Source of the DNA: a virus
Lineage: Duplodnaviria; Caudoviricetes
Virus record (IMG/VR): IMGVR_UViG_3300005805_000111
Span: 1-56,018 of that record
Reading direction: 5' to 3' (one strand)
DNA: 56,018 bases
Shown one piece after another: positions 1 through 54,050 of the stretch. The translations under genes were made by a program, and so were the position numbers. How positions within the stretch are numbered: the first letter of the stretch is position 1; each line of letters starts with the position of its first letter. The notes beneath the pieces are model-generated. The model ran no database searches. It saw only the letters and a list, made by a program, of their open reading frames with translations, and was not told where the DNA came from.

Positions 1-160
1 GTAGGGGTAGGACCAGGTACAGCAGGCGTAGGTACGCGGGGAGTAGGGGTAGGACCAGGTACAGCAGGAGCAGGTGCGCCGGGAGTAGGGGTAGGACCAG
101 GTACAGCAGGCGTAGGTACGCGGGGAGTAGGGGTAGGACCAGGTACGGCAGGAGCAGCGC
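1..160. repeat. 42-bp coding tandem repeat (14 aa unit PAVPGPTPTP-RVPT/GAPA), at least ~4 copies, alternating variants
   Basis: gtaggggtaggaccaggtac starts at 1, 43, 85 and 127. Confidence 0.95.
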
Positions 161-860
161 CAGGGACACCAACCCCGATTCCCTGTTGCGCGCGACGACT
201 CAGGTCATCATCCTCATTCCAATCCCAGTCAATTCTCCGACCTAGTTCGCGAAGACGCGAAACACGATCCAAAAGACGATCACGCAGTTCTGTCGCACGC
301 GTCCGTCTAGCAACACGCGGAGATGGTGTTCCATCTGGCAGGATGCCACGACGGGCAAGCGCCCGAGCACGACGCGCGGCCATAAGCGGAGTATCAACTC
401 CCTCTTGCGCCCAATCCTCCAACGCGGCACCAGTGCGGCGCGCACCAGCACCAAGACCAAGTTCCGTATCTCTACCACTAGCAAGCCTTCGAGCACCCAA
501 ACCCAAGCCAAGGCTTGTTAGTCTTTCCCCAAGTCGTGCCGCCAGTCGGCGCACAAAGCCAGTAGTACAGCCTTCTCCAAGGCGATTAGTGAACTGTCCA
601 GCGGCCGGTGTTTCTGGCGGACAGCGGAACTGTCCTGCCACTGGATCCCACACAGCGCGCTTCTGTTGAATCTCAAAAAGCAGAGCATTTTTTGTGGAGT
701 CTGACTCAAAGGCAACAGCCTTGTAGTTGACCATGTCATTCCATGCGTTGAATGACGAGTGGTCAATAATTGCGTTTACTACCCTAGGCGAACGTTGTCC
801 GCTATTGATTGTTTTTGTGCGCACGCCATCATTGGCCAGACTCTTAGTTTCAAATGTCAT
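1..860 (-). CDS. Head-operon protein, partial (runs off the left edge; not in ORF track); RCP..GQF..C motif, Arg-rich segment, Pro/Thr-rich repeats
   Basis: ATG at 860-858 overlaps the TGA of the upstream gene (ATGA). Hand translation is open to position 1: MTFETKSLANDGVRTK...FRCPPETPAAGQFTNRLGEGC...PAVPGPTPTPRVPT. Confidence 0.85.
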   Translation of the reverse strand, partial: MTFETKSLANDGVRTKTINSGQRSPRVVNAIIDHSSFNAWNDMVNYKAVAFESDSTKNALLFEIQQKRAVWDPVAGQFRCPPETPAAGQFTNRLGEGCTTGFVRRLAARLGERLTSLGLGLGARRLASGRDTELGLGAGARRTGAALEDWAQEGVDTPLMAARRARALARRGILPDGTPSPRVARRTRATELRDRLLDRVSRLRELGRRIDWDWNEDDDLSRRAQQGIGVGVPGAAPAVPGPTPTPRVPTPAVPGPTPTPGAPAPAVPGPTPTPRVPTPAVPGPTP

Positions 861-2947
861 GTCAATCCAACGAATTCAAAAAGTCTCTTCTTGGAGGAGC
901 GCAGCGTTTGAAGCCTACGTTCAAATATTTCTCTCATCAGGTCAAGCCTAACCTGTTCAGGCTTGGTCAGTTTACCATCGGCCGTAAGTCGCCTAATGTA
1001 ATCCTCCCACTTAAATTCCTCGGCCCTTTTAATTGTGTCATTATAAAGGTTGAGCAGAACCTGTCGTTGCCTTGCTGAAACATCAGCAAAAACATCCCTA
1101 TATGCGCCACCGTCCCTGTCATACCAGGCTCCAAGAACCTGCACCCGCCGTTGACGCAACTCTTCGGCAGATAGGCCGACACCAGCAGCCAACGGGTCTC
1201 CAGTAGAGAACGTTCTATTACGATTACCAACACGAACGGTAGCCAAATTCTGTTCATTTCTGCCACGGTTATCTAAAAGGTAATCAGCAATCGTCAAAGT
1301 AAAAAGGTCCTTAATATTTGGACGCAAAAGCGGATCGGCATCAAAAGAGCCATCGACAATATTAGACCTATCTTCAAATATTGAACCCCGCATCTCGTTT
1401 TCGCCGTCAGGGAAAACGCGACCAGACCTCAGGCCAAGATAACTCTGAATATCCGAAGAGACACGGCGGGAAAGATGTTCAAAGTCATCTTTAGCAGGAG
1501 CAGAAACCCAGCGATTACCACGACCACCATCAAAGATGGTCGTTCGATTTTTCCCTCGCTTTTTATCAAACCGGCTACTCCGAGCGAGAGCGCGTCCCAA
1601 AAATTCGGGTGGCACATCCGCAAGAGACCCACCACCGTTAATATGTGCTATAGCCTCTTCAAGAGATGAGATGTTCTTCTCTGATGCAGTCCCAGCAGAT
1701 TGCCTTGCTACGCGTTCTGTTTTCCAGGGAGCCTGCGAACGGTCTCGACCAGGAGCATTCGCTGCCATAAACTTTCGGTAAACCCACCGCCTCACGTCCA
1801 CCTTCTGGCCGTTCCTGGTGGCAGTAATAATATCGTTGGCGTCCTCTACATCAGGAATATTTTCCCTATAGGTCAAGGCCCCCTCCGACTGTTCCGCAAT
1901 AGCCCTCAGGCGGTCGCCGCCATCGAACGGTTTTGCATCAGCCCGAGAAGTTTGTGCCCACAGCCGACCAAGACGACGACGGTCGCCGTTGCTTAATTCA
2001 CGAGTTGCTTCTAGTGTTGTAGTGCCACCACCTGGCAATACATTATGTAGGGCTCGAACCTTATTCTGCCAAATAAGCGGAGCATGCTCAACGCCAATAT
2101 TTGACGGGCTTTTTACCCCAGCAAAAAACGATGCACCCTCCATGTCGGGACTTTTGCGCACCCCCGCTAAAAATGTGGACGATACAGCGGGAGCCAAAAT
2201 AAACCCGTCGCGCCGCGCCATAAATCTGGCGTCAGGATTCTTCTGGATAACACTGACAATTCCATCAAATGCTGTTTGCACACGACGCGCACTGGGCCCA
2301 CCGATCCTAGGAATCTGAGCATTACGCTGAATCTGAATTGTGCTACCGCTCAGGGGGCCGCCACCAAGAGCACGAATCATTGCCTCAGACGGCGGAGCCT
2401 TCAAAAATGGTCTATTCAATGCCGTAAGTCCCAGCAAGCGCCGATTAGGTAACTCAAAAAGAATTCGACCACAATTGCCGAAACCGCGAGTAGCAAATCT
2501 TCCGCCGTTCTCGTAGCCCGCAGGGCAGCGCAACTGGGCTCGACGCGCACGCCTTGCAATACCCAAAACCCCAGGAACACCGCCCCCTCGACCAATACGC
2601 CCGAAGCCTCCCCCACCACCGGGAGTGATAGCAGAAAATACTGCTGATCGCGGGTTTGTGAACGGGGTCGTGTCGCCTGGAAGAAGAAGTGAGCCAAGGG
2701 CCTGTCCGGCGCGACCAACAGCGCTCTCGTCGCGAATAATGCCAGCCTTTATATCAATACTGCTCTTAGTCTGCTTGTATTCGTCAAGCAATTTGAGAGC
2801 AACGGTCGCCTTCAAATTGATCACATTGCGGGACGCTAAGCCAGGCTTATTGGCGACACGTGCCGTCGGTTCATACTCGAATACACGACGAACAATGGGG
2901 ACAACTAAACCATTCTTGTCGTCGTCTTCGGGTTTTTCATCCCACAT
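857..2947 (-). CDS. Putative internal virion protein with RCP motif and C-terminal degenerate HipA/PI3-PI4 kinase-like domain
   Basis: Long ORF; likely start ATG 2947 (MWDEKP) after AAGGGTG. EHLSRRVSSDIQSYLGL and ADYLLDNRGRNEQN resemble the kinase alphaC helix and DxLLxNxDRxxxN catalytic loop. Confidence 0.6.
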   Translation of the reverse strand: MWDEKPEDDDKNGLVVPIVRRVFEYEPTARVANKPGLASRNVINLKATVALKLLDEYKQTKSSIDIKAGIIRDESAVGRAGQALGSLLLPGDTTPFTNPRSAVFSAITPGGGGGFGRIGRGGGVPGVLGIARRARRAQLRCPAGYENGGRFATRGFGNCGRILFELPNRRLLGLTALNRPFLKAPPSEAMIRALGGGPLSGSTIQIQRNAQIPRIGGPSARRVQTAFDGIVSVIQKNPDARFMARRDGFILAPAVSSTFLAGVRKSPDMEGASFFAGVKSPSNIGVEHAPLIWQNKVRALHNVLPGGGTTTLEATRELSNGDRRRLGRLWAQTSRADAKPFDGGDRLRAIAEQSEGALTYRENIPDVEDANDIITATRNGQKVDVRRWVYRKFMAANAPGRDRSQAPWKTERVARQSAGTASEKNISSLEEAIAHINGGGSLADVPPEFLGRALARSSRFDKKRGKNRTTIFDGGRGNRWVSAPAKDDFEHLSRRVSSDIQSYLGLRSGRVFPDGENEMRGSIFEDRSNIVDGSFDADPLLRPNIKDLFTLTIADYLLDNRGRNEQNLATVRVGNRNRTFSTGDPLAAGVGLSAEELRQRRVQVLGAWYDRDGGAYRDVFADVSARQRQVLLNLYNDTIKRAEEFKWEDYIRRLTADGKLTKPEQVRLDLMREIFERRLQTLRSSKKRLFEFVGLT

Positions 2948-2957
2948 GGGGCACCCT

Positions 2958-4709
2958 TCAGTTTTCGACGTCTTTGTTTTCTTCCAAGGCCAGCAACTCA
3001 AACTCAAGAATGCTAGCCATCAACTCAGGATCATCTTCGATGGTTAGGGACTTCGCCCCATCAGACCATTCTGCGGGGAGCATGTCTTGAAGACCAAGCG
3101 CACGGGCACGCTTCTTGATATGGGCCTTTGCGGCATCAATGTCTTTCGCTCGACCATGAGCCTGAATAGCATTGCGCAAGTCGGCCTCGTCCTTGATCGG
3201 GAATGAACCATCGGGCATGGCCTCACCGGAGTCAGCCATATCCTGACGGGCCTCTATGCCGTACGCCCGCTTCAGGGCAATTTCAGCAATTTCTGCTTCA
3301 ATCGCTAGCGCTTCGACTGCGTCATAGGTATCGTACCCAAGAACTTGCCCGTCGAGACTGACATAAACATCATAAGAGTTTCCGTCAGCACCGCTAATTT
3401 CAACCGCATACGACTCGTTCCCCTCAAACTCGTCTGCGTCGATAGAAACAATTTCTCCCTCGATTGACTTAACGGCAATTTGTCCGGCCTCTTCGAATGA
3501 AATGATTTTCTGGGCAGAATCGGCAGACTTGACATCGATCTGTTCGGAGTCAAGTTCCTTCCAGCCCTTGCATCGTGCATCCTGACCATCAAAAATTGCT
3601 TCGATGATCGCATTATCACGCTTAACCTGTACGACGAAAACATCCTTAACGTCGGAATATCCGGAGGTCAGAATCTTACCGCCAAAGGTTCCTTCGGCGA
3701 TGCCCTGAATTTCAATGAGCGTCGGAAGACCCTGTTCTGGGGCGCATCCACCAGGACAGGCAACGCAAGGGGCGGAAGTTCCAGCAAGCATTTTCTGCTG
3801 GAATCCGCAGACATAGGCGTCGTCATCCCAGTCTTCGGACTTGACGCCCATCGACTGCATGCGCTGCATGCGTGCCTCGCGTCGCTTTCTCATTTCTTCC
3901 TCTGCCATGCGCTCCATCTCAGATGCGCCGTCGCCGCCCATTCCCATGCCCATTTTCTCGTCAGACATTTCGTCATCCTCGGAGTTGGCGGTCATAAGTT
4001 TGGTTCCGCACTGCGAGCAGAATTTTGCGTTCTTGCTGTTCTTGTAGGAGCACTTTGGGCAAATGGTCTTGTCCTCGTCAGCGGCCTCTGGTTCGGCTTC
4101 CGGCTCGGCTTGCCCTTCCGGCATTCCTGTCGGTTCGGGCATTTCGCCCTCTGGGGTCATCATTTCCTTACGGCGCATACGGCGACGCAACGCACGGAAC
4201 ATGCCCTTTTCCTCATCGTCGAGCATGTCTTCGTCTTCGTATTCGTTACCATTTTCGTCCATTTTGCGCATGCGACGACGAAGCATTCGCAACATTCCCT
4301 TTTCTTCGTCGGAGAGAAGGCTTTCGTCCTCGTCAAAATCTTCGTCATTCATCATCTTCTCGTCCAACTTCTGCTGGACCGCGAGGGCGCCACACTTGCC
4401 GCAAACTTTTGCGCCCTTCTCGTAGCCGCATTCGCCAGCAGGGAGGTCTTTCGCGCAGGAAAGAAGGCCGCCATCGGCATCAATTTTCACTACGGCCTTT
4501 TCATCCATGTCCATTGTTTCGTTCTCCTTGTATTGCATTGATCGTGATGTGCAGGTTTTGGGTGACGAGCAACTTGGGCACGGGGCCATGCGCTTTTCGG
4601 CTGTCACCATACACTGATATTTTGGTTGTGTTTTATCCAGTGCTTTGGCTAAGCCATCTCCTTGCGGAGAGTCACTTTGTTCTACAGAATCATTCTCCCT
4701 GTTGGTCAT
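2958..4709 (-). CDS. Multidomain head-associated protein: Cys-rich zinc ribbons, acidic/Met-rich linker, two PepSY-like repeats, C-terminal PDGSFPI domain (DUF6582-like)
   Basis: CPKC..NAKFCSQCG; ISFEEAGQIAVKSIEGEIVSID...YAVEI..ADG..YDVYVSLDGQVLG; AMPDGSFPIKDEADLRNAIQAHGRA...HIKKRARALG. Confidence 0.65.
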   Translation of the reverse strand: MTNRENDSVEQSDSPQGDGLAKALDKTQPKYQCMVTAEKRMAPCPSCSSPKTCTSRSMQYKENETMDMDEKAVVKIDADGGLLSCAKDLPAGECGYEKGAKVCGKCGALAVQQKLDEKMMNDEDFDEDESLLSDEEKGMLRMLRRRMRKMDENGNEYEDEDMLDDEEKGMFRALRRRMRRKEMMTPEGEMPEPTGMPEGQAEPEAEPEAADEDKTICPKCSYKNSKNAKFCSQCGTKLMTANSEDDEMSDEKMGMGMGGDGASEMERMAEEEMRKRREARMQRMQSMGVKSEDWDDDAYVCGFQQKMLAGTSAPCVACPGGCAPEQGLPTLIEIQGIAEGTFGGKILTSGYSDVKDVFVVQVKRDNAIIEAIFDGQDARCKGWKELDSEQIDVKSADSAQKIISFEEAGQIAVKSIEGEIVSIDADEFEGNESYAVEISGADGNSYDVYVSLDGQVLGYDTYDAVEALAIEAEIAEIALKRAYGIEARQDMADSGEAMPDGSFPIKDEADLRNAIQAHGRAKDIDAAKAHIKKRARALGLQDMLPAEWSDGAKSLTIEDDPELMASILEFELLALEENKDVEN

Positions 4710-6889
4710 TGTTTGCGACTTATCTTATACTGGGTGCCACCTGCAGATTTCTTGCCGTAAGTAGCGCTAAAAGATTTTAGTGCATTTGTAATGGCTTTCT
4801 CGGCATCTACGGAAAGTGTTTCTTTAGAAAACTCTAGACCACTTTCTGTGGCTTTACAGTCAATCTTGTGATAATTGATAATTGGGTTGAGGTGCTCCCT
4901 GAGAGAGAAAAGTTCCGAAATTGGTGCTTCGATGAGGACCTTCGTTTGACCTGTGCTTCGCTTCGGCTCACCATCAATAATTGCACTATCTATAATTTCA
5001 GCCAGTTTGATGAGTTGCTTGGCGTCGGACGAACTGATTATCTCAACAATCTGATCCAAGGGATCCTGCTTCTTGCCGCATCCGCAGTTACATCCGCCGC
5101 CCGCCCCCTCAGGCTTGAACCAATTATGCTCTACTTCATTATCATAATCGTCATCGCCAACATGGACCCAGTTTGAATCGTCGCCAATGAACTGCATGAA
5201 CTCGGGCTCATCGTCCATGAATTCTTTCAGAACCATGTTCGCAAACTTTACATCTGTTTCAGTGACTGGACCGTCATCGGTGTCATCATCTTCTGAGTAC
5301 ATGCCCATCATCGGATCAGCCTTCTTGGGATTGGCAAGCCTAGAAAGTCGAGTATTAAACTGATCATCGGACCAGAGGGAGCCGCCAACAACCCCGCGAA
5401 TCTTCTTTCGACAGTTCTTCATCCCAGGATGATGACAACCCTCGTTTGGCCATAGTCCAGTCGTTTCATGGTGAAGCCACGCGCAGATATTCTGCAATGG
5501 GTATAGTTCTGGGTGGTCGGCCAAGATGACCAGGCAACGACGAAAGCCGCCTGGCTTGCGCATGATGGGTCGCCAGTAGCGAAGAAGCCTTTCCAGGTTC
5601 CCTCGACGCGGACCGTATCCGCGCAATATGTCGCCAGTGATATTTTCCTGCGGAATGACATCCGGTGGGATCGGGGCCTTTTGCTCTTCATCGGGCCAGG
5701 AGGCGAAGTTTTGTCCGACGCGACCAGCGACCGGGGTAAACACTGTCTGTGCTACAACTCGTTCCGGTTCGCCAACCATGAACTCGTTTTCATCTTCCTC
5801 ATAATGATACGAGACCCGCATTGTTTCAGCCGGTGAGTCGTTACGCTCAATATCGAATACAACAATATTTTCGTCCATTACTCGGATGCGGACTCGACCA
5901 GAAAACTTTTCAGAAAGCGCCTTTGCCAATGCAGTTGCCCGCTCTTCGCCGCTCTCAGTCAGCGTGTTCGCACCGTAATAGCCTTTTTCTTCCGGCCCTA
6001 AGTCAAGCCCCTTCTTTTTTCGGTCCTCGATTTTCGCTATTTCTGCGCGCACTAAATCTTTCATATGCTTCTCGCCACGGCTGCCAATCGCCAACCACTT
6101 TATCTGGGCTATGACGCCTGGAAGACGGAAGTCCTTCTCGTGCCTTGCGACCCACGCCTCGCGCAGTTCGAGCGCCGCTATTTGCGCGTCTGTCGTTGCG
6201 CTGCCCCCTGCTTCCGCGATTTTTGAAAGTATCTCGTATTGTGCGTTTCCCTTGATGTTGCCGCCCTTGCGCCACAGTTCTGGGTACTCCGTTCTAATCA
6301 TCTCTGCAAACGCCCGATCAAACATCGGCCACTTGCTCTTACGGAATGACGTCACCTTGTCTTCTGGCTTGTCTGACTTGATGGAGATCGTTGCGGTCAG
6401 TTGATTTGCGCCATGAAGAACTGGCGAAACTTCGTAGAGTTCAACCTCCTTAAGAATATTGGCTTGACGCTGACTATCGTAAATGGCATCAAGGGTTTTG
6501 TATCCGATTGACCATTCCTGGTCTGCTCCGAAGAACATGACATCGGAGAAAGCCTGACGGCCCCTTTCTGACTTCAGGTTAAACTGGACGCGGGCGTACA
6601 GTCCGCCAACGTTTGCCTGACGCATTTTTCCTGGTAGACGGGGGTCGCCGGGACGAACCTCATAGATTTCAAGGACCTTGCCGATCGGGCTATTCCAGTC
6701 GTGTCCCCAGACAACTCTTGGATTTCGGCGACGCAGGCTCGAATCAAAGGCTCCAGGGATGATGATGTCTCCGACGGAGTCCTTATTGCCAATGGCGGCA
6801 ACAAAACATTCGACGATGCCCTGGGCTTCGTCGATATTGAATTGTCCTGGATTTGCTTTGAATTCAAAAAGGTCTGTCGCGGCGGGCAT
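4706..6889 (-). CDS. HK97-family prohead (capsid maturation) protease with ~550 aa C-terminal extension
   Basis: GNKDSVGDIIIPGAF, VVWGHDWNSPIG (His), WSIGY (Ser), LYEVSPVLHGAN (Glu); directly downstream of the portal. Confidence 0.92.
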   Translation of the reverse strand: MPAATDLFEFKANPGQFNIDEAQGIVECFVAAIGNKDSVGDIIIPGAFDSSLRRRNPRVVWGHDWNSPIGKVLEIYEVRPGDPRLPGKMRQANVGGLYARVQFNLKSERGRQAFSDVMFFGADQEWSIGYKTLDAIYDSQRQANILKEVELYEVSPVLHGANQLTATISIKSDKPEDKVTSFRKSKWPMFDRAFAEMIRTEYPELWRKGGNIKGNAQYEILSKIAEAGGSATTDAQIAALELREAWVARHEKDFRLPGVIAQIKWLAIGSRGEKHMKDLVRAEIAKIEDRKKKGLDLGPEEKGYYGANTLTESGEERATALAKALSEKFSGRVRIRVMDENIVVFDIERNDSPAETMRVSYHYEEDENEFMVGEPERVVAQTVFTPVAGRVGQNFASWPDEEQKAPIPPDVIPQENITGDILRGYGPRRGNLERLLRYWRPIMRKPGGFRRCLVILADHPELYPLQNICAWLHHETTGLWPNEGCHHPGMKNCRKKIRGVVGGSLWSDDQFNTRLSRLANPKKADPMMGMYSEDDDTDDGPVTETDVKFANMVLKEFMDDEPEFMQFIGDDSNWVHVGDDDYDNEVEHNWFKPEGAGGGCNCGCGKKQDPLDQIVEIISSSDAKQLIKLAEIIDSAIIDGEPKRSTGQTKVLIEAPISELFSLREHLNPIINYHKIDCKATESGLEFSKETLSVDAEKAITNALKSFSATYGKKSAGGTQYKISRKQ

Positions 6890-6982
6890 GCAAGTTTCTC
6901 CAACTTCGCTTATTTACCAATAATACAGTTTTTATTCGTAATTCTGGGGAATGTTTGTCGCCTATCTAATTTCAAGACTTTA

Positions 6983-9217
6983 CTATTTCTTGTCGATTCT
7001 TAGTCTGCATCTGCAGTTGATCGTAAGACTAGGCGGTGCAAGCGGGTCTCCGGGGAACCTGAGGACAGTTCCTTCCTCTATAAAGGAGTTGTTTAGTTCC
7101 ACGGACTTGCCGTCAAGAGATGCGTGGGCGGCCCGAACCTTTGCGTCTCGTCTGGTTATCCACCGCTTTTGAAGGCTGGTTTCGTCATTCTTTTTGCCAA
7201 CTAGATACAGGCCAGCGTTATAGGCGGTTTGTGCCTCGTGTTCTGCGATTATCCGGCGACGGTCTTTCATCAGGTTGGCAAAAACTGCTAGTAGCGCCGT
7301 CTTCAGAAGGGCAGACCGCTCCTCCTCATTTTCCATCGCCATGGCGACCAGGATTGCGGCAGTCAGTTCGTCTCGGGTGGTTTGATTAACCAACTGCAGT
7401 CTGCTGATCTGCGAATCTAGATATTCGTCCAGTTCTTTTTCTTGTATCTGTTCTGAGGCGTCAGGGAAAAGAGTAGTGGAGTTTTGTGCCGCATCTTTAA
7501 TAATCGCTGCAAGAATTGGGCGGGCCTCGGCATTCATTTTTGTATTCCAAGCCTGCATATTGAAAATGGCTCCCGCAGTCATCTTGCCGCTTTCTAGCAA
7601 CTTCTTATTTTTTTCGCCAAGCGCTTTTTCGAGAACTAAACTCTGCTGGTTTTCAAACATTTTTTGTAACCGCAGATCAAGTATTTCAGTCCATCGTTCT
7701 GATGTTTGAACTGCCTTGATGTCTATGTCGTCGAATGGGATAAACGCAGCCTTGGTCATCAGTTCGCCACGATCTTCCGAGAGCGCTCCCCCTGGGACGG
7801 GAGCAGTCGTTGTTTCGACCGGAGGAACTTCTTCGGGAGGAGTGAAGCCCATTCCTGGCTCAACTGCTGGGGCCTGCTGTCCCTGTGGTGGGGCCATCTC
7901 AACTCCGGGCAACGCTCCAGCCTGAACTGCGCTTGTCATTACAGTCTGTGGTCCAGGTGCAGCGGCGCCAGGTTCCGGCACCACGGTGGGCTTTTCGGTG
8001 TTTCCAATTGGGGCAAGGTTCGGGTTTGCCAGCATGGAGTCCATTAGGTCAGATGTGACGCGACCCCTTCCCGTGTTCAAACGATATTCATTGGCGGAGA
8101 TGAGTCCACTACCAAACTCTTGCAAAAGATGCTGCTCTCGCTCCTGTTTTGCAAGGATCAAGGCCGGAACGTCAGTGGTATCAAAATCAATGTAGTAGCG
8201 CGGGTGGAGCACATCAAGGGCGCGCGCAATCGGTTCAAGGTGAGGAAGCATGGTTTCCATCCAGAAAACCTTGATTTCTTCCCCGGCATTAGAAAAGGTT
8301 CGTCCGCTGGCATTGCCTATAACTGACTCGGGCACGCCGAATGCTGCAAGTATTTCTTCCTTTGTTATCTGCCGCATTGAACTGTAGGCGGCATCCCGAG
8401 GTGATGCCCCTGTATCAACAAAGTCCACGCCATCTTCTGAAGCAATGACCGTGGTCCCTCCGGCTCTATTGATATTTCCGCGGAACCTGGAGCGAAGTTC
8501 GTCCTTGTCGTCCTCGTCCATTTCTCCGCGAACAACTATCAACCCACCGGGTCGTCCGTCGTTGACAAGGAAGTTTCGGTTATAGATCTTGGCAAGGTTT
8601 TCAATTTCGATCGCTACTCCGGCTGCTTCCATCGGCGTCAACGAAAGATATGGGTCTAATGGGTGCGGCCGCCTGATCCAAATGACGTCTTCTGGTTTTA
8701 CTCTAATTTTGATGCCGCTGGGCATATCTACTTCGTATCCGGCAACAAATTTGCGGGGGTCGGGAATTGGCGAAGTGTGTTGCGGTGGAAGCAGGTGAAG
8801 CGCAATAAGTTCCCCATTGCGTCCACGCACCTTTTCAATAAACACCCCTCGGGTGCTCATCAAAAGTTGCGACGAAAGCCGGTAGCGGAAAATGAAGGAA
8901 TCCTCTCCCTCGTTGGAGCGCGAGTTGAGGATTTCGAGGATTTGGTTATCCTCTTCAATGACTGTACCGTTCGGTGAATTGTCGGCGCGCAGGATGATTG
9001 GAAGCCTGGCTTGGTTGCCCGCGATGGCGTCGATGCAGCGGAAAACCCAGGTGACCTTCTGCATGCCTTCTCGGTATGCGCGCTGCATGTCCCAGCCATC
9101 GCGGTATGCCCGCCCTGCCCTAGACGTGTCGAATGCGATCGGTGCACCCGCGTTGAGTCCAGAAGCCTTGACTTGCTCGTTCGCTAGACTTTTAGATTCT
9201 GGCTTATTCCAGGCCAT
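6983..9217 (-). CDS. HK97-family portal protein fused to C-terminal MuF (minor head) domain
   Basis: WVFRCIDAIA, ILAAFGVPESVIG, ISANEYR portal motifs; C-terminal KRWITRRDAKVRAAHASLDG...RFPGDP...INCRC is a MuF signature. Confidence 0.92.
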   Translation of the reverse strand: MAWNKPESKSLANEQVKASGLNAGAPIAFDTSRAGRAYRDGWDMQRAYREGMQKVTWVFRCIDAIAGNQARLPIILRADNSPNGTVIEEDNQILEILNSRSNEGEDSFIFRYRLSSQLLMSTRGVFIEKVRGRNGELIALHLLPPQHTSPIPDPRKFVAGYEVDMPSGIKIRVKPEDVIWIRRPHPLDPYLSLTPMEAAGVAIEIENLAKIYNRNFLVNDGRPGGLIVVRGEMDEDDKDELRSRFRGNINRAGGTTVIASEDGVDFVDTGASPRDAAYSSMRQITKEEILAAFGVPESVIGNASGRTFSNAGEEIKVFWMETMLPHLEPIARALDVLHPRYYIDFDTTDVPALILAKQEREQHLLQEFGSGLISANEYRLNTGRGRVTSDLMDSMLANPNLAPIGNTEKPTVVPEPGAAAPGPQTVMTSAVQAGALPGVEMAPPQGQQAPAVEPGMGFTPPEEVPPVETTTAPVPGGALSEDRGELMTKAAFIPFDDIDIKAVQTSERWTEILDLRLQKMFENQQSLVLEKALGEKNKKLLESGKMTAGAIFNMQAWNTKMNAEARPILAAIIKDAAQNSTTLFPDASEQIQEKELDEYLDSQISRLQLVNQTTRDELTAAILVAMAMENEEERSALLKTALLAVFANLMKDRRRIIAEHEAQTAYNAGLYLVGKKNDETSLQKRWITRRDAKVRAAHASLDGKSVELNNSFIEEGTVLRFPGDPLAPPSLTINCRCRLRIDKK

Positions 9218-9420
9218 TAGTCACGCCCCAAAAGGAACCCGTAGAAGCCCGCCGATACGCCTGCTACTATTAATCCAGCACCTGGCGTGAAGACCATGGA
9301 AACTCCTATAGACGGTAGAACAACAAAACACACCATTAAAAAGTGTGCTGAAAATTGACGCGAAGTAAGTATAGCAATAATTTTAGCCCACTTTATGGGC
9401 TTTTCGGTGGACTCTGCCAT
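9217..9420 (-). CDS. Small membrane protein preceding the portal
   Basis: Two hydrophobic segments; GGAG SD; stop overlaps portal start (TAATG). Confidence 0.75.
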   Translation of the reverse strand: MAESTEKPIKWAKIIAILTSRQFSAHFLMVCFVVLPSIGVSMVFTPGAGLIVAGVSAGFYGFLLGRD

Positions 9421-9480: not shown

Positions 9481-10788
9481 TTGGTGACAGACTGGAATAA
9501 GGTACTAGATTATTTACAGCCGAAGGAGCCCCTTTACTGCCCTGAGGAACCATCGCTAACTCAGAAGGTTTTTTTGCGGACTAATCAGTTGGAGGCATTA
9601 TTTGGGGGTGCTGCCGGTGGAGGAAAATCGTCTGCTCTCCTGATGTCGGCACTGCAATATGTAGATGTTCCAGGTTATTCTGCCATTCTTTTTCGTCGTA
9701 CATTTGCCGACTTGGCCTTGCCTGGAGCCCTCATGGACCGTGCCCGTGAGTGGATGTCTAATTATGATGAGGTGCGTTGGAACGCCGTTCAGAACACTTT
9801 TACTTTCCCGTCTGGGGCGCGCGTCACATTCGGCTATCTAAACAACACTAATGATTACCTGCGCTATAAAGGCGCTGAATTTCAATTCATAGGTATGGAT
9901 GAAGTTACAGAAATACGCGAAGCAGACTATCGTTACTTGTTCTCGCGTTTGCGCCGCCCGTCATCTGGCCCCTTGGCAAAAGTTCCGCTCAGGATGCGCT
10001 GCGCCTCGAACCCCGCTCCGAACTGGGTGAGGCAAAGATTCATTATCGAGGGCAAAGAACAGGGAAGAATTTTTGTTCCATCCAAATTGACAGATAATCC
10101 TGGTATCGATGCCAGTTCCTACCGGTCCGCCCTTCAGGCTCTTGATCCGATTGAGCGTCGCCGCCTTGAGGAGGGCGACTGGTGGTCCACCACGCTCGGA
10201 ACAATGTTTGAACGGGAGAACTTTATTCTAGTAGATCCTACGGATATTCCACAGTTAACATCGTCAGCCAGGGCGGTTAGATTCTGGGACCTGGCGGCAA
10301 CGGAACCCTCTTACTCGAACCCGGACCCCGACTACACTGTTGGAACTTTAGTCCTTTTTGATGGTGGCGTCTGTTATGTCGTAGATGTTAAGCGGGCCCG
10401 TGTCAAGTCTGAAAAGGTAGAGTCCCTTATTGCACAGACTGCCGCAGAAGATGGGCCAACCGTTTCGATCCGAATGGAACAGGAACCAGGATCATCTGGC
10501 AAGGCGCTAGCCGACCAGTATGCGCGGTATGTGTTGCCGGGATACGACTTCATGTCATTGCGTGCTACAGGAGATAAGGTGACTCGGGCGAGGCCGTTCG
10601 CGGCCGCCGTCGCAAACGGAAACGTGAGAGTCGTGCGAGGCCCATGGCTAACGCAATGGCTGGACGAGTTCTCGTCTTTCCCAGAGGCGGCCGACCACGA
10701 CGACCAAGTTGACAGCGCCGTGGGAGCATTCACATATTTGACAGGTTTGGGGTTGCCTCAAAGAAAGAGAGCCAGTATCATCATCTAG
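9481..10788 (+). CDS. terL: Terminase large subunit
   Basis: Walker A GGAAGGGKS, Walker B FIGMDE, ASNP coupling motif, nuclease WDLA and HDDQVDS. Confidence 0.96.
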   Translation: MVTDWNKVLDYLQPKEPLYCPEEPSLTQKVFLRTNQLEALFGGAAGGGKSSALLMSALQYVDVPGYSAILFRRTFADLALPGALMDRAREWMSNYDEVRWNAVQNTFTFPSGARVTFGYLNNTNDYLRYKGAEFQFIGMDEVTEIREADYRYLFSRLRRPSSGPLAKVPLRMRCASNPAPNWVRQRFIIEGKEQGRIFVPSKLTDNPGIDASSYRSALQALDPIERRRLEEGDWWSTTLGTMFERENFILVDPTDIPQLTSSARAVRFWDLAATEPSYSNPDPDYTVGTLVLFDGGVCYVVDVKRARVKSEKVESLIAQTAAEDGPTVSIRMEQEPGSSGKALADQYARYVLPGYDFMSLRATGDKVTRARPFAAAVANGNVRVVRGPWLTQWLDEFSSFPEAADHDDQVDSAVGAFTYLTGLGLPQRKRASIII

Positions 10789-10811
10789 ACCAGCCACGGA
10801 GGAGGCTATAA

Positions 10812-11303
10812 ATGGACATAACTGCCTGCATAAACACGATCAGGAAATGCATTCTTGACCTTGACGAACTCGTTAGCAAGGATCTGCAGTCTGCCGAACT
10901 TTCACAACTCTGTGAAACGCTCGTCGATATTCACAGACTCAAAGACGAACTATCCATTGTTTACGCGACCGCAAGCCATATCGCCTCAGAGTCACTGGGA
11001 GAACAGAGCGAACTCCTCCTCAACGATGGGTCACGCATCGAAAAGAAAACATCTTCAGACCGCAAGGCATGGAGACACAAAGAAATCGCATCAATGGTGG
11101 CACGAAGACTTTCCTCGTTAGCGGTTGACATGGATACCGGCGAACGCGTAATGTCAATGGAGGAGGTGGCTGAACGAGTCCTAGATTACGTTCAGCCGTC
11201 ATACTGGAGAGTAAAACAACTATCTGAACTCGGCATCAACGCAGACGACTACTGCGAAGTCGGGGAAACGAAGACAAACCTAATCATCAGAAAGGCAAAG
11301 TGA
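10812..11303 (+). CDS. Hypothetical protein
   Basis: GGAGG SD; stop overlaps the next start. Confidence 0.8.
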   Translation: MDITACINTIRKCILDLDELVSKDLQSAELSQLCETLVDIHRLKDELSIVYATASHIASESLGEQSELLLNDGSRIEKKTSSDRKAWRHKEIASMVARRLSSLAVDMDTGERVMSMEEVAERVLDYVQPSYWRVKQLSELGINADDYCEVGETKTNLIIRKAK

Positions 11304-12031
11304 TGGCAGCAAAGGCAACCACAAAGACCGACGAAACCACTGAAGTCAAGTCGGCTCCCCAAAGCGACAACAGCACACTGTTCGCTGAACTAAGCGCACC
11401 CTTCCCCCCCGGTGTTGAGCGCGCTCTTAGCAAGGGCGGCACCACGTTGACATACATCCCGGTCAGCGAAGTAATCAATCGGCTTAATCGGGTAGTTGGT
11501 GTTGACAACTGGTCTTCGGAGATTATCCGCTGCGAGCGTGACGCACTTGATCCCGACTTCATTGTCGCTCATGTGAGGCTCACAATCAGAGGAACAAAGC
11601 CCAACGGAGCAGACCACAATATCTGGAAAGATGGACTTGGAGGACAAAAGATCAAGCGCACACGCGACGGGTCGATTGTCGATCTTGGCGACGAGTTCAA
11701 GGGTGCCGTGTCGGATGCCCTCAAAAAGGCCGCCCAGCAGTTGGGAATCGGACTGTATCTTGCGCGTTCCGAAGAGGCACTATTGATGGATGCGAAAGCA
11801 GATGTCGACCCGGAGGTGGATGCACTCTGGGAGCAGTTCACCTCTCTTGCAAAGAGTCTTGACGCAGACGGTCGTACCGCACTGAACAAGCATTGGGCGG
11901 ACATGAGCGGTAACGCACCCAAGCCTCGCCGTGAAACCGCCGACGCAGCCACGCTTATCGCCCTTATCGATGAGTGCATCCGCATCACTGTTGGTGGCAA
12001 TTTTGAAAGCGATGTTGCGGATGGCTCTTGA
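11300..12031 (+). CDS. Rad52/Rad22-family (Sak-like) ssDNA annealing recombinase
   Basis: LTYIPVSEVINRLNRVVGVDNWS and FKGAVSDALKKAAQQLGIGLYL. Confidence 0.88.
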   Translation: MMAAKATTKTDETTEVKSAPQSDNSTLFAELSAPFPPGVERALSKGGTTLTYIPVSEVINRLNRVVGVDNWSSEIIRCERDALDPDFIVAHVRLTIRGTKPNGADHNIWKDGLGGQKIKRTRDGSIVDLGDEFKGAVSDALKKAAQQLGIGLYLARSEEALLMDAKADVDPEVDALWEQFTSLAKSLDADGRTALNKHWADMSGNAPKPRRETADAATLIALIDECIRITVGGNFESDVADGS

Positions 12032-12785
12032 GCCGCCGCCGTATCTTTCGCCTTCATCAATAGCAACTTTTAGGCAGTGTCCACTGCGCTTTAAGTACAA
12101 CAAGATTGATGGTATGCGTGAGCCTGACACAGAGGCAACGATCATGGGGACTTTTGTCCATCAAATTTTGGAGATCGTCTTCAAACTTGACTCAAAGTCT
12201 CGAACCATAGATGCAGCAAAGAGCATTGCGTCGTCCCTATGGAACGATGGCGAATGGCAGGCGCGCGTTGCCGAAGTGATCGGTTCAGAGGCGGCTCGCT
12301 TACGCGAGTTTCGCTGGAAGTCTTGGTGGTGCGTGGAGAACTACTTCGCCATCGAAGATCCGTCTAGCGTTCATCCATCCGGCATTGAACACGAGGTCAA
12401 CGACACTATCGCCGGGGTGCCCATCAAGGGGTTCGTGGACCGATGGGTGGACAACGATGATGGTCTAGTCATCTCTGACTACAAGACAGGGAAAACTCCA
12501 GCCCAAAAATATCGTTCCGACAAGTTTATTCAGTTGCTGATCTATGCAATTCTGCTTGAACAGGAGACTGGACGCCCTGCACGAAAACTGGAACTTCTGT
12601 ACCTTAAGGACGGGACGCTCCTTTCTAGTGATATAGACCGGCGAAGCATTGAGTCGGTAAAAACAATGATCTCAGGAGTTCATGGCGACATTCTGGCGCG
12701 CTGTGACCGGGAGTCATTTGAACCAAAAACATCGGTACTGTGCGGTTGGTGCAGTTTTAAGCCAATCTGTCCAGCCTGGAAATAG
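12021..12785 (+). CDS. PD-(D/E)xK RecB/AddB/Cas4-like exonuclease with 4-Cys Fe-S motif
   Basis: LSPSSI..FRQCP, GTFVH, GFVDR, DYKTGK, QLLIYA, CGWCSFKPIC; likely start ATG 12021. Confidence 0.9.
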   Translation: MALEPPPYLSPSSIATFRQCPLRFKYNKIDGMREPDTEATIMGTFVHQILEIVFKLDSKSRTIDAAKSIASSLWNDGEWQARVAEVIGSEAARLREFRWKSWWCVENYFAIEDPSSVHPSGIEHEVNDTIAGVPIKGFVDRWVDNDDGLVISDYKTGKTPAQKYRSDKFIQLLIYAILLEQETGRPARKLELLYLKDGTLLSSDIDRRSIESVKTMISGVHGDILARCDRESFEPKTSVLCGWCSFKPICPAWK

Positions 12786-12798
12786 GAGAAAAATAAAA

Positions 12799-13302
12799 AT
12801 GAATGATGATGCCTTTGCACGGCTTGTAGCCGAAGAAGTTAAGAACAATGTGTCCAATGCTCAGCGCGAATACCTGATGCTTCCTGACAATCGAAATCGT
12901 TGGGAGCGCGCGCTTCGCGCTCTGCTAGACAACCTGGACAGTCAGATCGCAAACATCAATAGGCAACGCGCCGATGAGATTGCCAGGTATGAGGCGATGG
13001 GCGATGAAGGGTTTAAACTTGTCGCAGAAGCGGCAAGTAGCCATGATCACCGGTCAAAAAAGATCTCTCGTTTCCGCTTCTATGTTGAGTCAAGGCTAGA
13101 CGAAGTAAGCCGTCTCATTGCGATGGGTTCTGATGATGACGAAGAAAAGGTTGCGTTCGTTCAGTTCCTTAGGTCGGCCATTGCCACGCACAAGAAAATG
13201 CTTGAGGAAAATGACCTTGAGCCAACAAGTATTGATGTTGCCCTGTGGGATGCCCTCGATGGCGTCTGGTCATTTGATAGCGTGGATCTGAGTGATCTGT
13301 GA
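12799..13302 (+). CDS. Hypothetical alpha-helical protein
   Basis: AGGAGA SD before ATG 12799; coupled to the next gene. Confidence 0.75.
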   Translation: MNDDAFARLVAEEVKNNVSNAQREYLMLPDNRNRWERALRALLDNLDSQIANINRQRADEIARYEAMGDEGFKLVAEAASSHDHRSKKISRFRFYVESRLDEVSRLIAMGSDDDEEKVAFVQFLRSAIATHKKMLEENDLEPTSIDVALWDALDGVWSFDSVDLSDL

Positions 13303-14369
13303 TGAAAATTGGAATTGCCTCTACTGACTGGTCTAGAAGTCTTTTTGACTCCACTGGAATGAATGTTCCTGGTGGCGCAAATTGGGTGCGCCTTCAACAG
13401 ATGCGCCCATATCTAGGGCACACTTCCGCTACTGGGTGGCTTGTCTGGCAGGACGAACTTGGTTTCGGCGTCAGTAACGGCAAGGACAAATTTGCTTTTG
13501 ATTTTGATGTTCTTGTGATGCAAAGAATTATGTTTAAGAATCTGGTTGGACAACTAGAGAAGTATCGCGATAAGAATCCGCGCACCTACATTATTAACGA
13601 TGTAGATGACTGGTACTGGGGTCTTGACCCCAGGAACGCCGCGTATTCAATGACGCGCCCAGAGAACAATCGTGAAGAAAATATCGACCACTATCGGAGA
13701 ATTCTGGAACTTTCTGACATGGTAACTGTGTCAACGCCGTTTCTTAAAACCGCGATTGAGCAACAATTTGGTCATAGCAATGTTCATATCATTGAAAACT
13801 GCATAACGGTTAAAGACTTTACTCAAAGGGCATTTACCGGCAAGCAACCAATTATCGGCTGGGTCGGCTCCACCAATCATCGCAGCGGTGACCTAGAGGA
13901 ACTATATGGAATATTCAACAACTCTTTTCGATTTCATCACAGTGGACATTACGGTTCGGAAAATAAATTTGCTAAGGCTCTCGGATTAAAGAGTTCTCGT
14001 GTTTCTCGTAGTCCGATGCGTCCACCTTTGGAATATGCAAAGATGTCGTTCTGTTTCGATATTGGATTAGCCCCATTATCTAATATCGAGTTCAATCATG
14101 CTAAATCGTGGATTAAATTGATTGAATATGCCGCGTGCGGGATACCGTTTGTTGCGTCGCCGCTCCCTGAATACATTCGTCTCGTAGAAAAACTTGGAGT
14201 TGGACGAATTGCATACGATTCAGTTGATTGGCTTAAGCATGTTTCAGAACTGCATGACACTGATATAAGAATTAACGAGGGACTTCTTTTAAGGGAGCGA
14301 GTTAGTGAACTGTTAGATGTTAAGGTTATGGCCGCGCGCTGGCTGGATGTGGTATCTTCGGCCTTGTGA
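13299..14369 (+). CDS. Glycosyltransferase (GT-B, GT4-like)
   Basis: DVDD, VTVSTPFL, IGWVGS..H..DL, DIGLAPL...FNHAKSWIKLIEYAACGIPFVASP. Confidence 0.85.
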   Translation: MMKIGIASTDWSRSLFDSTGMNVPGGANWVRLQQMRPYLGHTSATGWLVWQDELGFGVSNGKDKFAFDFDVLVMQRIMFKNLVGQLEKYRDKNPRTYIINDVDDWYWGLDPRNAAYSMTRPENNREENIDHYRRILELSDMVTVSTPFLKTAIEQQFGHSNVHIIENCITVKDFTQRAFTGKQPIIGWVGSTNHRSGDLEELYGIFNNSFRFHHSGHYGSENKFAKALGLKSSRVSRSPMRPPLEYAKMSFCFDIGLAPLSNIEFNHAKSWIKLIEYAACGIPFVASPLPEYIRLVEKLGVGRIAYDSVDWLKHVSELHDTDIRINEGLLLRERVSELLDVKVMAARWLDVVSSAL

Positions 14370-25540: not shown

Positions 25541-25836
25541 TGCAGTACGTCAATTTCGAAAAAGGTTCATCCTCCGCAACAGAGCAGCCGCCCCAATATC
25601 TATTTATGGGGCGGGTTGCCCGCATAGAAGAAACAAACGTTTTTGTTGAAATCCCTGCTTTGGGTCCTGGGACTGTCGTAGGTCCGTGTGCGACCATACA
25701 TAGTGGCATTAAGCCTCTTCCCGAAGTTGGCGATATGGTTGTATGTGGGGCTATCGGAAATGCGTCTGACTATTTTGTTGTGCTCGGTAAAATAGTGTCT
25801 TATACGTTTTCGACTGTTAATGGCGGTTCTGCGTAA
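25540..25836 (+). CDS. Short baseplate spike protein (gpV/gp5 OB-fold-like)
   Basis: [12 protein letters not shown]...PLPEVGDMV...VVLG. Confidence 0.65.
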
Positions 25837-26471
25837 TGCCTAGGGAAACATTGATTCAGGTTCGTCGGGATACCGCCGCCAATTGGACCGCTGTCGACCC
25901 TGTTCTTGAGTCGGGTGAAATCGGTTTTGAAACTGATACTAATCAAATTAAGGTTGGTAATGGTTTAAATTTGTGGAGCGAGTTGCCATATGCGATTGGT
26001 CCGACTGGTCCGCTTGGCCCTACTGGTCCAACTGGTGCAGATTCGACTGTAACTGGCCCCACGGGGGCTGATTCTTTTGTTACGGGACCGACCGGCCCTA
26101 CCGGTCCAACGGGTGCAACTGGCCCGTCTGTAACTGTTTCCGATTCATCTCCTGAGATGTATTCACAAGGAGACCTATGGTTTGATTCGGCTAATGGCAA
26201 AGTTTTTATTTATTACGATTCTTTTTGGATTGAGTTCACTGGATCTCCTGGTGATTTTGGCCCGACGGGCCCGACGGGTCCCATTGGGGCAGACTCTACA
26301 GTTACGGGACCAATGGGGGCGACGGGGCCGACTGGGCCGACTGGGCCAACGGGGCCGACTGGGCCAACGGGGTCTACGGGACCCCAAGGACCATTATTTG
26401 CCCAGTTGGATGGTGGGGAGCCAAATACCATATATGGTGGCACTGCTATAATAGACGCGGGAGGAGTGTAG
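25836..26471 (+). CDS. Collagen-like fibre protein with Mtd/hyaluronidase-type N-terminal domain
   Basis: [11 protein letters not shown]...[23 protein letters not shown]; GPT repeats; GDLWFDS module. Confidence 0.8.
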
Positions 26472-27305
26472 ATGGCAATCCAAATTCAATTTCGTCGTGG
26501 TCTTGCTTCTGAGTGGATTTCTGCAAACCCAATTTTAGCGATTGGTGAATCTGGTTATGAAACCGACACCGGTAGGTTTAAGGTTGGTGATGGAACATCT
26601 AACTGGATTGCGTTGCCTTACTCTTCTGGCGAACCTGGCCCCACCGGGCCCTCTGGTCCGACTGGTCCGCTTGGCCCTACTGGTCCAACTGGTGCGGATT
26701 CGACTGTAACTGGCCCCACTGGGGCAGACTCTACAGTTACGGGACCGACCGGCCCTACCGGTCCAACGGGCCCTAGTGGGCCAACCGGCCCCAGTGGCCC
26801 TACCGGCTCTGCGTCAACAGTTACTGGCCCGACGGGCCCAACTGGTCCTGCTAGCGGGCCAACCGGGCCAACCGGGCCGACCGGTCCCTTGAGTGTCGTT
26901 GTTTCTACCTCTGAACTTTCTGCAGATGTAACGATGACAACAGCAAACCAGTTTTACAATGGTCCCAGCCTGACGCTTGACGCCGGTAACTACGTGATAC
27001 TTGCGCAGGCAGTTGTTAATACAACAACGACAAACGCAGGGCAGAGAGTAACGGTTAGGGTCTCTAACACATCAACTACATATTATGCAGAAGCGGAGCA
27101 ATCTAATGCTCCGAGCGGAAGCGGTGGTAGCGCTGCGATAGGTACTGTCACTGTTTTCTTCCATGTGTATGTGACGCTGGCAGCGAGCACTACTTTGCGC
27201 GTCGAGGCAACAAGCACTTTGGCTGGATCAACTCTTAAAGCGCAGGCTACGGACAATAGTTCGGTCGCAAACAAGTCAACAATTTTAACTGCAATTAAAG
27301 TATAG
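26472..27305 (+). CDS. Collagen-like fibre protein with Mtd-type N-terminal domain and beta-rich C-terminus
   Basis: [32 protein letters not shown]; GPT repeats. Confidence 0.8.
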
Positions 27306-33150: not shown

Positions 33151-33162
33151 GATTTTACTAAA

Positions 33163-35247: not shown

Positions 35248-35256
35248 TTTATTGCC

Positions 35257-45806: not shown

Positions 45807-48011
<2,205 letters not shown>

Positions 48012-52801: not shown

Positions 52802-53404
52802 ATGTCAAAAACTAAAATTGAAAGTAAGGCAGCGCAAGTAGTTAACAATCTTTTTGATGAAGAAGTGTTTAATGGCATACAGAAATACGTAGAAAATGTT
52901 GTGCCAGCACTAAGATGCGCTGTTGACAAAGACATTTTTGTTAGAAATTATATACATAACAATAGTTTTTTTGTTGATATTCATCATCAACTTGCAGATT
53001 TTGCATCTGAAATGTTTAAAGAACGCGTAAAGCCCTCTTATTGTTTTTTGTCATTGTATAAAAATGGTGGAAAGTGCCCTTTGCATATTGACAGGCCCCA
53101 GTGTCGATATACAATTGATTACCTTGTTCGCGCAACATCATCCAAACCATGGCCAATATCCATATCTGACCCGTTGTCCAAGTTTGAACTAACAAAAATA
53201 CTGGATGGACATCCGAAAGACCAAGATATAATCGATAGGATTATTTCAGATAATACTTGGACTACGATTGATCTTCAGCCAAACGACGCTGTACTCTATT
53301 CTGGCACAAACTCTTGGCACTACCGCCCTACAGCACTACAGGGAGAAGCAGATCTAGTGTTTTTTCATTTTGTCCCGGAGGGTTTCAGTGACCAACTTAA
53401 TTAA
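52802..53404 (+). CDS. 2OG-Fe(II) oxygenase-like protein
   Basis: LHIDRPQC (HxD), DAVLYSG...WHYR. Confidence 0.75.
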   Translation: MSKTKIESKAAQVVNNLFDEEVFNGIQKYVENVVPALRCAVDKDIFVRNYIHNNSFFVDIHHQLADFASEMFKERVKPSYCFLSLYKNGGKCPLHIDRPQCRYTIDYLVRATSSKPWPISISDPLSKFELTKILDGHPKDQDIIDRIISDNTWTTIDLQPNDAVLYSGTNSWHYRPTALQGEADLVFFHFVPEGFSDQLN

Positions 53405-54011: not shown

Positions 54012-54050
54012 GCCAGGTGCGGTCAGCATCATTCGTGCTAGATTGCGTTC

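Follow-up and report, generated by a model that had tools for sequence, protein, structure and literature searches.

Are the lysine-alanine, lysine-serine and lysine-glycine pairs in the large head proteins of an uncultured phage the places at which its prohead protease cuts? The question is raised by IMGVR_UViG_3300005805_000111, a whole linear viral contig of 56,018 bp (hereafter the window), in which positions 1-9217 of the minus strand hold five translationally packed open reading frames (ORFs) and are the head-assembly operon of the phage. An earlier reading of this DNA, the original prediction, had listed 17 such pairs and proposed that the proteins bearing them are packaged in the prohead and cut by the phage protease into small domains or effectors for delivery with the DNA. 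On balance we lean, if narrowly, towards taking the pairs that are conserved among relatives as prohead-protease processing sites. As a whole, the observation of candidate cleavage sites is partly confirmed by the analysis and its interpretation partly supported. The five genes are the following (window coordinates):

6983..9217, minus strand: portal-MuF fusion, 744 amino acids (aa); PF04860 and PF04233, phrog_2662
4706..6889, minus strand: S78 prohead protease fusion, 727 aa; PF04586, BLASTP match to HK97 gp4
2958..4709, minus strand: acidic head-module protein, 583 aa; PF13240, PepSY-like profile match, AlphaFold2 (AF2) model
857..2947 (857-3007 with a TTG start), minus strand: 716-aa ORF (696 aa from M21); no Pfam or PHROG match
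1..860, minus strand: N-terminal 286 aa of a giant head-module protein; homologous ORFs in relatives

The protease that the original prediction placed in this operon is a real HK97-type S78 enzyme. PF04586 matches residues 23-168 at 51.0 bits against a cut-off of 21, phrog_80 ('head maturation protease') matches the fusion at 8e-30, and BLASTP aligns it with HK97 gp4 (E = 6e-14), placing H63 opposite H65 and S127 opposite S114, which we take to be the catalytic residues of gp4. H63, S127 and E153 are invariant in 23/23 relatives. The protease core occupies the first 170 residues and is followed by ~550 further aa in at least four domains. The portal gene joins PF04860 (residues 57-379, 175 bits) and the MuF domain PF04233 (650-739, 43 bits), both above cut-off, in one reading frame, and phrog_2662 'portal protein' covers residues 37-743, spanning both domains.

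Conservation of the sites was judged in relatives from IMG/VR and from a protein collection. A scan of IMG/VR with a 23-sequence protease alignment matched 599 stretches, 591 of them coding for a relative, and 79 loci were retained; the protein collection yielded 950 homologs of the protease fusion (399-1273 aa), of which the best 120 form the protease conservation set. The sets for the other proteins are ORFs of the 79 loci (BLASTP E<=1e-10, identical sequences removed), with coverage floors of 0.8 for the portal, 0.4 for the 583-aa protein, 0.7 for the 716-aa protein and 0.2 for the left ORF (first 450 aa); the portal has 57 distinct homologs in the related loci. A single-sequence IMG/VR search for relatives of the 583-aa protein returned none, and these were found instead via the protease alignment. 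Gene order is kept in the related loci and runs terminase, portal-MuF, protease fusion, 583-like gene, sometimes inserts, 716-like gene and giant ORF. Further downstream on the same strand, a PF05065 capsid gene is present in 4/4 relatives' records searched versus 0/1 for the 56,018-bp window record; the HK97-fold capsid gene of this phage lies beyond the contig end.

All 17 listed dipeptides are present in the translations, and the codons were verified for 12. They are portal K17, K489 and K501; protease K11, K171, K302 and K404; K71, K137, K168, K290, K394 and K553 of the 583-aa protein; K66 and K87 of the 716-aa ORF; and K6 and K47 of the left-edge ORF. Conservation divides them. Lysine followed by a small residue is retained in at least 75% of homologs at 10/17 sites, 2/17 are intermediate, and 5/17 are not kept. 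The claim that the sites lie at domain borders stands for the conserved subset, which falls in linkers that are variable or of low model confidence, and fails for two DEEK|G sites, which lie inside predicted helices and are unconserved. The candidate sites are listed below, with the vertical bar marking the putative cut:

9164..9169, minus strand: portal K17|A18, candidate N-terminal processing site; pair in 0.97 of 58 sequences
7712..7753, minus strand: portal K489|A and K501|A, Pro-rich linker before the MuF region; K501 pair in 58/58
6854..6859, minus strand: protease K11|A12, before the core; pair in 113/120; AF2 low-confidence segment 1-17
6374..6379, minus strand: protease K171|S172, end of the core; K in 120/120, pair in 105/120; AF2 segment 156-173
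5675..5680, minus strand: protease K404|A405-P406, linker before the hyperconserved domain; pair in 99/120; AF2 segment 381-435
4494..4499, minus strand: K71|A72 of the 583-aa protein, a weaker candidate; 0.65 of 34; edge of AF2 segment 58-70
3837..3842, minus strand: K290|S291 of the 583-aa protein, between a basic helix and the conserved C-terminal half; 0.91 of 34
3525..3530, minus strand: K394|S395 of the 583-aa protein, between two PepSY-like domains; 0.79 of 34; AF2 segment 391-399
3048..3053, minus strand: K553|S554 of the 583-aa protein, before the last amphipathic helix (561-582); 0.79 of 34; AF2 segment 552-556
2807..2812, minus strand: K66|A67 of the 716-aa ORF (K46 from M21), motif [LIV]-N-[YFL]-K|[AG]; K in 33/38
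717..722, minus strand: K47|A48 (VNYK|A) of the giant protein, start of the conserved RCP..GGQxTDRxGxxCG region; K in 14/15

The clearest of these sites are islands of identity in surroundings that vary. Portal K17 follows a variable stretch that itself follows an invariant MAWN start, and its pair is retained at 0.97 against a flank identity of 0.38, with the residues two to four before the putative cut (P2-P4, counted back from lysine as P1) being variable. In the Pro-rich linker of the portal, whose flanks differ in length and sequence among relatives, K489 and K501 are isolated lysines. K501 is followed by alanine or serine in every one of the 58 sequences and lies 16 residues upstream of a MuF-type PHROG match (starting at 517); at K489 the lysine is kept in 0.95 of them and the pair with alanine, glycine or serine in only 0.57. 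Protease K11 is preceded by residues that vary in length, and K404 belongs to a K-A-P island among gappy columns that is retained where indels shift its position. In the AF2 model of the protease fusion, low-confidence segments (1-17, 156-173, 295-310, 381-435, 521-542 and 590-613) divide the chain into protease core, helical domain, alpha/beta domain, hyperconserved domain and C-terminal domain.

In the 583-aa protein, K290 comes after helix 264-286 in the motif M-G-x-K|S, K394 is missing in a subgroup of relatives, and K553 lies in an E-K-S island with a flank identity of 0.27, in a linker of very variable length before a conserved C-terminal helix. At K66 of the 716-aa ORF, which follows a variable N-terminus, lysine is replaced by arginine in 3/38 sequences, and the residue after the putative cut (P1') is alanine in 26/38 and glycine in 8/38. 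At K47 of the giant protein one of the 15 distinct sequences has arginine, lysine with alanine or serine is found in 12/15, and the preceding part ranges from 47 to ~140 aa; a collection search for more N-termini of this protein gave one match, among proteins of <=2000 aa.

This conservation is selective for lysine before a small residue. In the head proteins, lysines followed by alanine, glycine or serine (K[AGS]) exceed their +/-10-residue flanks in conservation by 0.17, versus -0.04 for other lysines (n = 40 and 126; Mann-Whitney p = 4e-4), and strong conserved islands are found at 10/40 of the former versus 9/126 of the latter (Fisher p = 0.004). The controls, drawn from the same loci, were the terminase and four proteins of replication or recombination type; these five gave 0.07 for K[AGS] versus 0.02 for other lysines (p = 0.22), with islands at 1/18 versus 7/49; seven further candidate controls were left out, having <=7 homologs each. 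When the same test of a residue followed by alanine, glycine or serine was applied to all 20 residue types, lysine was the strongest in the head set, isoleucine was second (p = 0.0014) and all others were at p >= 0.09, while nothing stood out in the control proteins.

The formal motif that accompanied the original prediction, [ILVFE]x[ILVTEQ]K[AGS], gave a mixed outcome. Twelve matches are found in the head proteins versus 4.1 expected, a number reached in 3/3000 shuffles, and there is no excess elsewhere (8 vs 12.7 expected in the 33 other ORFs; 6 vs 9.1 in 21 neck/tail ORFs). The motif was, however, written from these same proteins. A more independent replicate is provided by a genome outside the motif's derivation, that of Streptomyces phage Gilgamesh (L085), the nearest cultured relative found, whose portal-MuF protein gp46 is 41% identical over 58% of the query. 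Its four head proteins hold 10 matches versus 3.4 expected and five other proteins hold 1 versus 0.97; among the matches are one at the capsid maturation site, one where the protease core ends and one at residue 26 of gp48.

Capsid proteins connect the same dipeptide to a maturation site. Those of four relatives carry AK|SLG or GK|SLG ~100 residues in, aligned exactly with FNK103|S104LG of HK97 gp5, and IEEK|SLG of Gilgamesh gp53 lies in the same column. Protease K171-S172 aligns with K159-S160 of HK97 gp4 and with LEVK|S of Gilgamesh gp52. The likeness to HK97 comprises an S78 protease of the same family, a capsid protein in the relatives with a ~100-aa delta-type N-terminal domain ending in K|SLG, and a K-S pair after the protease core in both. 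The differences lie in size and content: gp4 has 225 aa whereas this protease has ~550 extra residues, the portal is here fused to MuF, and this clade has three large extra genes between those of the protease and the capsid protein. We know of no HK97 substrates beyond the capsid protein and the protease itself. The scaffold domain of HK97 is given as 103 residues (PMC10275583), and capsid proteins of phage phi12 are reported to be cleaved after R128 and K87, with a remark by the authors on the basic P1 residue (PMC8569155).

Taken as processing sites, the conserved pairs suggest the following sequence of events. The S78 protease would cleave on the C-terminal side of a lysine that precedes a small residue, in the manner of HK97 gp4 on its capsid protein; the ~12 conserved K|A/S(/G) pairs located in flexible linkers would be its targets. 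Four proteins (portal, protease, ~700-aa and giant) would lose N-terminal stretches; the MuF part would be freed from the portal and the protease core from its C-terminal domains; and the 583-aa protein would be trimmed and lose its last helix. Cutting of these bonds, the role of this protease as the cutter, and retention of the products in the head followed by their entry into the host with the DNA are steps that we infer, and the products may be small effectors for delivery. Standard virion proteomics would hide such termini because trypsin cuts after lysine. A more far-reaching version, which we regard as possible and rather doubtful, makes this an S78 counterpart of the internal-protein systems of T4 and phiKZ: a cargo comprising portal-MuF, the protease C-terminal domains, the putative HipA-like kinase protein and the giant protein would be loaded via N- or C-terminal targeting stretches, clipped at K|Ala/Ser linkers and injected with the DNA.

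Several results weigh against reading the pairs as processing sites. Raw K[AGS] is not enriched in the five head proteins (40 seen vs 39.9 expected from shuffles), and its share of lysines there, 40/167, does not differ significantly from the 84/439 of the 33 other ORFs (Fisher p = 0.21). Five of the listed sites are unconserved, namely protease K302 (pair in only 4/120), K137 (0.21) and K168 (0.09; n = 34) of the 583-aa protein, K87 of the 716-aa ORF as a pair (K in 31/38, the next residue usually being Val), and K6 of the left ORF (0.11 of 9). P2-P4 are inconsistent among the sites, and the relatives' capsid sites (S-A-K|S) do not match the original motif. Lysine did not stand out (6/87 vs 13/119 for arginine and 12/119 for glycine) in a simpler search, over all residue types, for residues conserved amid variable neighbours; the poorly conserved 716-aa family dominated this search, and the within-residue comparison took its place. 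The control set holds only five proteins, with tail proteins not among them; related sequences within the alignments inflate apparent conservation; and the sites of the 716-aa and giant proteins, being alike in local sequence around the lysine, may amount to a single event. The AF2 models that place the linkers are of moderate quality (mean pLDDT, the predicted local distance difference test score, 61 for the protease fusion and 72.7 for the 583-aa protein). Among cultured phages, 0/344 matching records cover >=80% of the protease fusion. It could be argued from the counts that lysine-small dipeptides are simply common and that look-alikes were picked, 17 of the 40 having been listed and the formal motif, fitted afterwards, suiting only about half of them. 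Such an artefact seems to us very unlikely, since homolog conservation, which was invisible to the original prediction, picks out 10/17, the signal is both head-specific and K-specific, and the motif is enriched again in the head proteins of the distant cultured phage Gilgamesh.

A structural explanation is harder to set aside, although we consider it unlikely: the K-small pairs would have a structural or binding role, for example in ending strands, capping helices or contacting DNA or the portal, and the proteins would work at full length. Equally conserved pairs do occur inside folded or conserved elements (protease K106 in 110/120, portal K531 and K536, and K87 of the 583-aa protein), where those at K106, K531 and K87 are probably structural; conservation alone is therefore no proof of a cleavage site. 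HK97 gp4, although much shorter, has lysines at the positions of protease K11 and K171 (E-I-K-F and A-M-K-S, the first lysine being followed by Phe rather than a small residue), and these two sites may belong to the protease fold. In the giant protein and the 716-aa protein the site coincides with the first conserved element of a domain, and portal-MuF fusions are common and annotated as single proteins. Against this, the effect is specific to lysine followed by alanine, glycine or serine and is absent from the control proteins, the same dipeptide is found at the capsid maturation site of relatives, and the best sites (among them portal K489 and K501, K404 of the protease and K553 of the 583-aa protein) stand isolated, in linkers so variable in length and sequence that structural constraint is unlikely there. 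The sites may also be real and the products something other than delivered effectors, that is, scaffold, core or targeting parts expelled before DNA packaging, like the delta domain of HK97 or the core of T4. We rate this, too, as somewhat unlikely. The 583-aa protein could just as well be a scaffold or core protein that is broken down and expelled. Its composition is acidic, its structure is in part helical or coiled, and its gene sits at the usual position of a scaffold gene; the DGSFPI..GRAKD module, present in a 1348-aa protease fusion of relative L006 and in the C-terminal part of phrog_80, suits a shared assembly or targeting module; and most propeptides of SPN3US are described as exiting the head (PMC10052503). 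On the other hand, a separate scaffold is not obviously needed because the relatives' capsid proteins already have a ~100-aa delta-type scaffold domain of their own, the giant protein (1003 to >2054 aa) and a protease-fusion domain more conserved than the protease are unlike disposable scaffolds, and MuF-type proteins are known head components that can carry effectors (PMC5512222).

If the conserved pairs are processing sites, how does the system compare with known ones? T4 gp21 carries out multi-substrate head maturation of the same kind, and T4/phiKZ-type proteases cut after Glu, versus the Lys proposed here; the only protease family found here is S78, which is not a member of that lineage. 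The phiKZ and SPN3US enzymes (gp175 and gp245) resemble the proposed system in that one prohead protease acts on many head proteins at a short consensus, with many of the products ejected with the DNA (PMC10052503). SPN3US gp245 is reported to cut 9 head proteins, the portal among them, at 14 sites, mostly removing N-terminal propeptides, and to remove its own C-terminal propeptide, with preferences for Val at P4 and Ser at P1' (PMC10052503). Iyer et al. (2017) described multi-domain proteins of virion genes fused to MuF or portal, kinase domains included, which they proposed to be packaged, peptidase-processed and injected (PMC5512222). They ascribed the processing to embedded peptidase domains such as MPTase, and in the excerpted parts of that article 'prohead protease' occurs only in the title of a reference (PMC5512222). 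The virion gene context and the MuF/portal fusion of these polyvalent proteins are present here; here, by contrast, the prohead protease would do the processing, with K|small linkers as its targets, and the window proteins are without a recognised effector domain (Pfam cut-offs, PHROGs). In phage P1 the gene of the 251-kDa DarB neighbours those of the portal and the prohead protease; DarB is packaged in the head via an N-terminal localisation signal, and the capsid protein loses 120 N-terminal residues (PMC9024508). A giant-protein gene beside portal and protease genes is thus common to both phages, but no sequence relationship was found between them, and the P1 proteins were placed in the head by proteomics whereas those here are known from genes alone.

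Gilgamesh offers a closer comparison. It shares a portal-MuF protein (gp46), the 4624-aa gp48, an S78-containing gp52 (annotated 'hydrolase') and the capsid protein gp53; it differs in that the giant gene precedes the protease gene and an equivalent of portal K501 is missing. In gp52 the S78 core is followed by a Nudix-like part (seen by eye), not by the domains of the present protease fusion. The gp48 product is annotated as hypothetical and its gene lies between the portal-MuF and protease genes (gp48 and gp52 at L085 6979-20853 and 22165-24090).

Several features of the individual proteins deserve description in their own right. In the protease fusion, residues 413-514 (5348-5653, minus strand) form a ~100-aa domain, PQE..GPRRGNLERLLRYWRPIM..HHETTGLWPNEGCHHPG, that is nearly invariant in relatives of only 48-85% overall identity: ~70 columns are invariant in the 23 sequences, and the protease core is less conserved than this domain. 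Its AF2 confidence is low and its match to the 82-aa family phrog_6439 (function unknown) weak, and an Atlas search with residues 405-522 was uninformative (best score 0.79). A sequence profile of the protease family found nothing in the PDB, and a fold search with the protease-fusion model gave 0 PDB matches at E<=0.001, the model being too weak and having too many domains.

The 583-aa protein consists of a Cys-rich N-domain, a zinc ribbon (PF13240 at 217-238), two PepSY-like domains (PepSY at 403-450, below cut-off), the DGSFPI..GRAKD module and a C-terminal helix; in a search of the PDB with its family profile the only match was the PepSY entry 9vy3 (E = 5.8e-5). The module, DGS[FY]PI.D..DL.NAI.A.GRAKD..AAKAHI.KRA..LG, ends the 583-aa family (residues ~495-553, window 3051-3230, minus strand) and may be a module for head assembly or targeting that several proteins share. 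The C-terminal part of phrog_80 'head maturation protease' matches it too, L006 has it fused to the 1348-aa protease protein (9974-14020), at the end, and in L033 it is duplicated.

The 716-aa ORF has 20 homologs of 681-710 aa that align from M21 (window 2947), for which reason the TTG start is probably wrong and M21 the likelier one; the M21 start was given as a 12-base overlap with the stop of the 583-aa gene (listed coordinates 2947 and 2958). Its original label, 'kinase-like', is backed by weak Atlas leads and by nothing in Pfam or PHROGs. A feature match of 0.93 was obtained to a cluster in which 16% of members have PF00454, and residues 464-713 reached TM (template modelling) scores of 0.5-0.7, normalised by target, against HipA-like clusters, below the tool's bar and with a query mean pLDDT of 0.47; a HipA/PI3K-like kinase fold at the C-terminus is possible on these model-based comparisons. 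Among the window proteins and four giant homologs, no effector domain reached its Pfam cut-off (PI3_PI4_kinase 19-20 vs 27.1 bits, HipA_C 18.5 vs 30.5).

The left-edge ORF, which had been taken for a whole protein, is the N-terminus of a giant protein, the homologous ORFs of relatives having 1003 to >2054 aa; its start overlaps the upstream stop (857/860). The left end of the contig (1-200, minus strand) lies inside a tandem repeat of this gene coding for PGPTPTP(R/G)(V/A)PTPAV, and the assembly probably broke there because of it. The 716-aa protein (2340-2520, minus strand) and the giant protein (540-610, minus strand) have in common the Cys motif RCPxG..GGxF[TA]xRxGxxCG; paralogy of the two was not borne out by pairwise BLASTP, the best match (E = 0.5) being at the RCP motif.

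In the remainder of the window, the large terminase gene at 9481 is transcribed divergently from the head operon, and beyond it the plus strand carries sheath, tube, chaperone and tape-measure genes; the tail of this phage is contractile. Three tandem paralogous ORFs of 692-763 aa at 30859-37335 (plus strand) have the common N-terminus TTTRFGLYRWS..D.....D.SH.NIE and are probably fibre or receptor-binding proteins; an ORF with a TTTRFGLYRWS-type N-terminus follows the capsid gene of relative L080 (2438-3289). Collagen-like Gly-X-Y runs are found in the ORFs at 25836-27305 and 45810-48011 (plus strand), among tail and fibre genes, and the right end (52802-56018, plus strand) holds glycosyltransferase-like and methyltransferase-like ORFs, the last of which runs off the contig. 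CheckV put the completeness at 38%, which by arithmetic implies a full genome of ~150 kb. The contig has no circularity or terminal repeats, its left end being an internal tandem repeat, and no tRNAs. Megablast with positions 1-9300 found no close DNA relatives among cultured phages.

What is new in the proposed processing is that T4/phiKZ-style multi-protein head maturation would be the work of a different protease family, S78, with a different P1 residue. If true, it would supply a sequence rule: a lysine followed by a small residue, located in a linker and encoded in the genes between portal and capsid, would point to head-loaded proteins and their trimming. To our knowledge, comparable information has so far been gathered for no families other than T4 and phiKZ, where mass spectrometry over many years supplied it. 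The tolerance of portal-MuF and protease-X fusions would be explained, and, in an environmental phage group that is very abundant, the kinase-like and giant proteins would stand out as candidates for injected host-takeover factors. In a clade this widespread (at least 591 IMG/VR loci and 950 protease homologs), the sites would amount to a readable code for predicting phage cargo from sequence alone.

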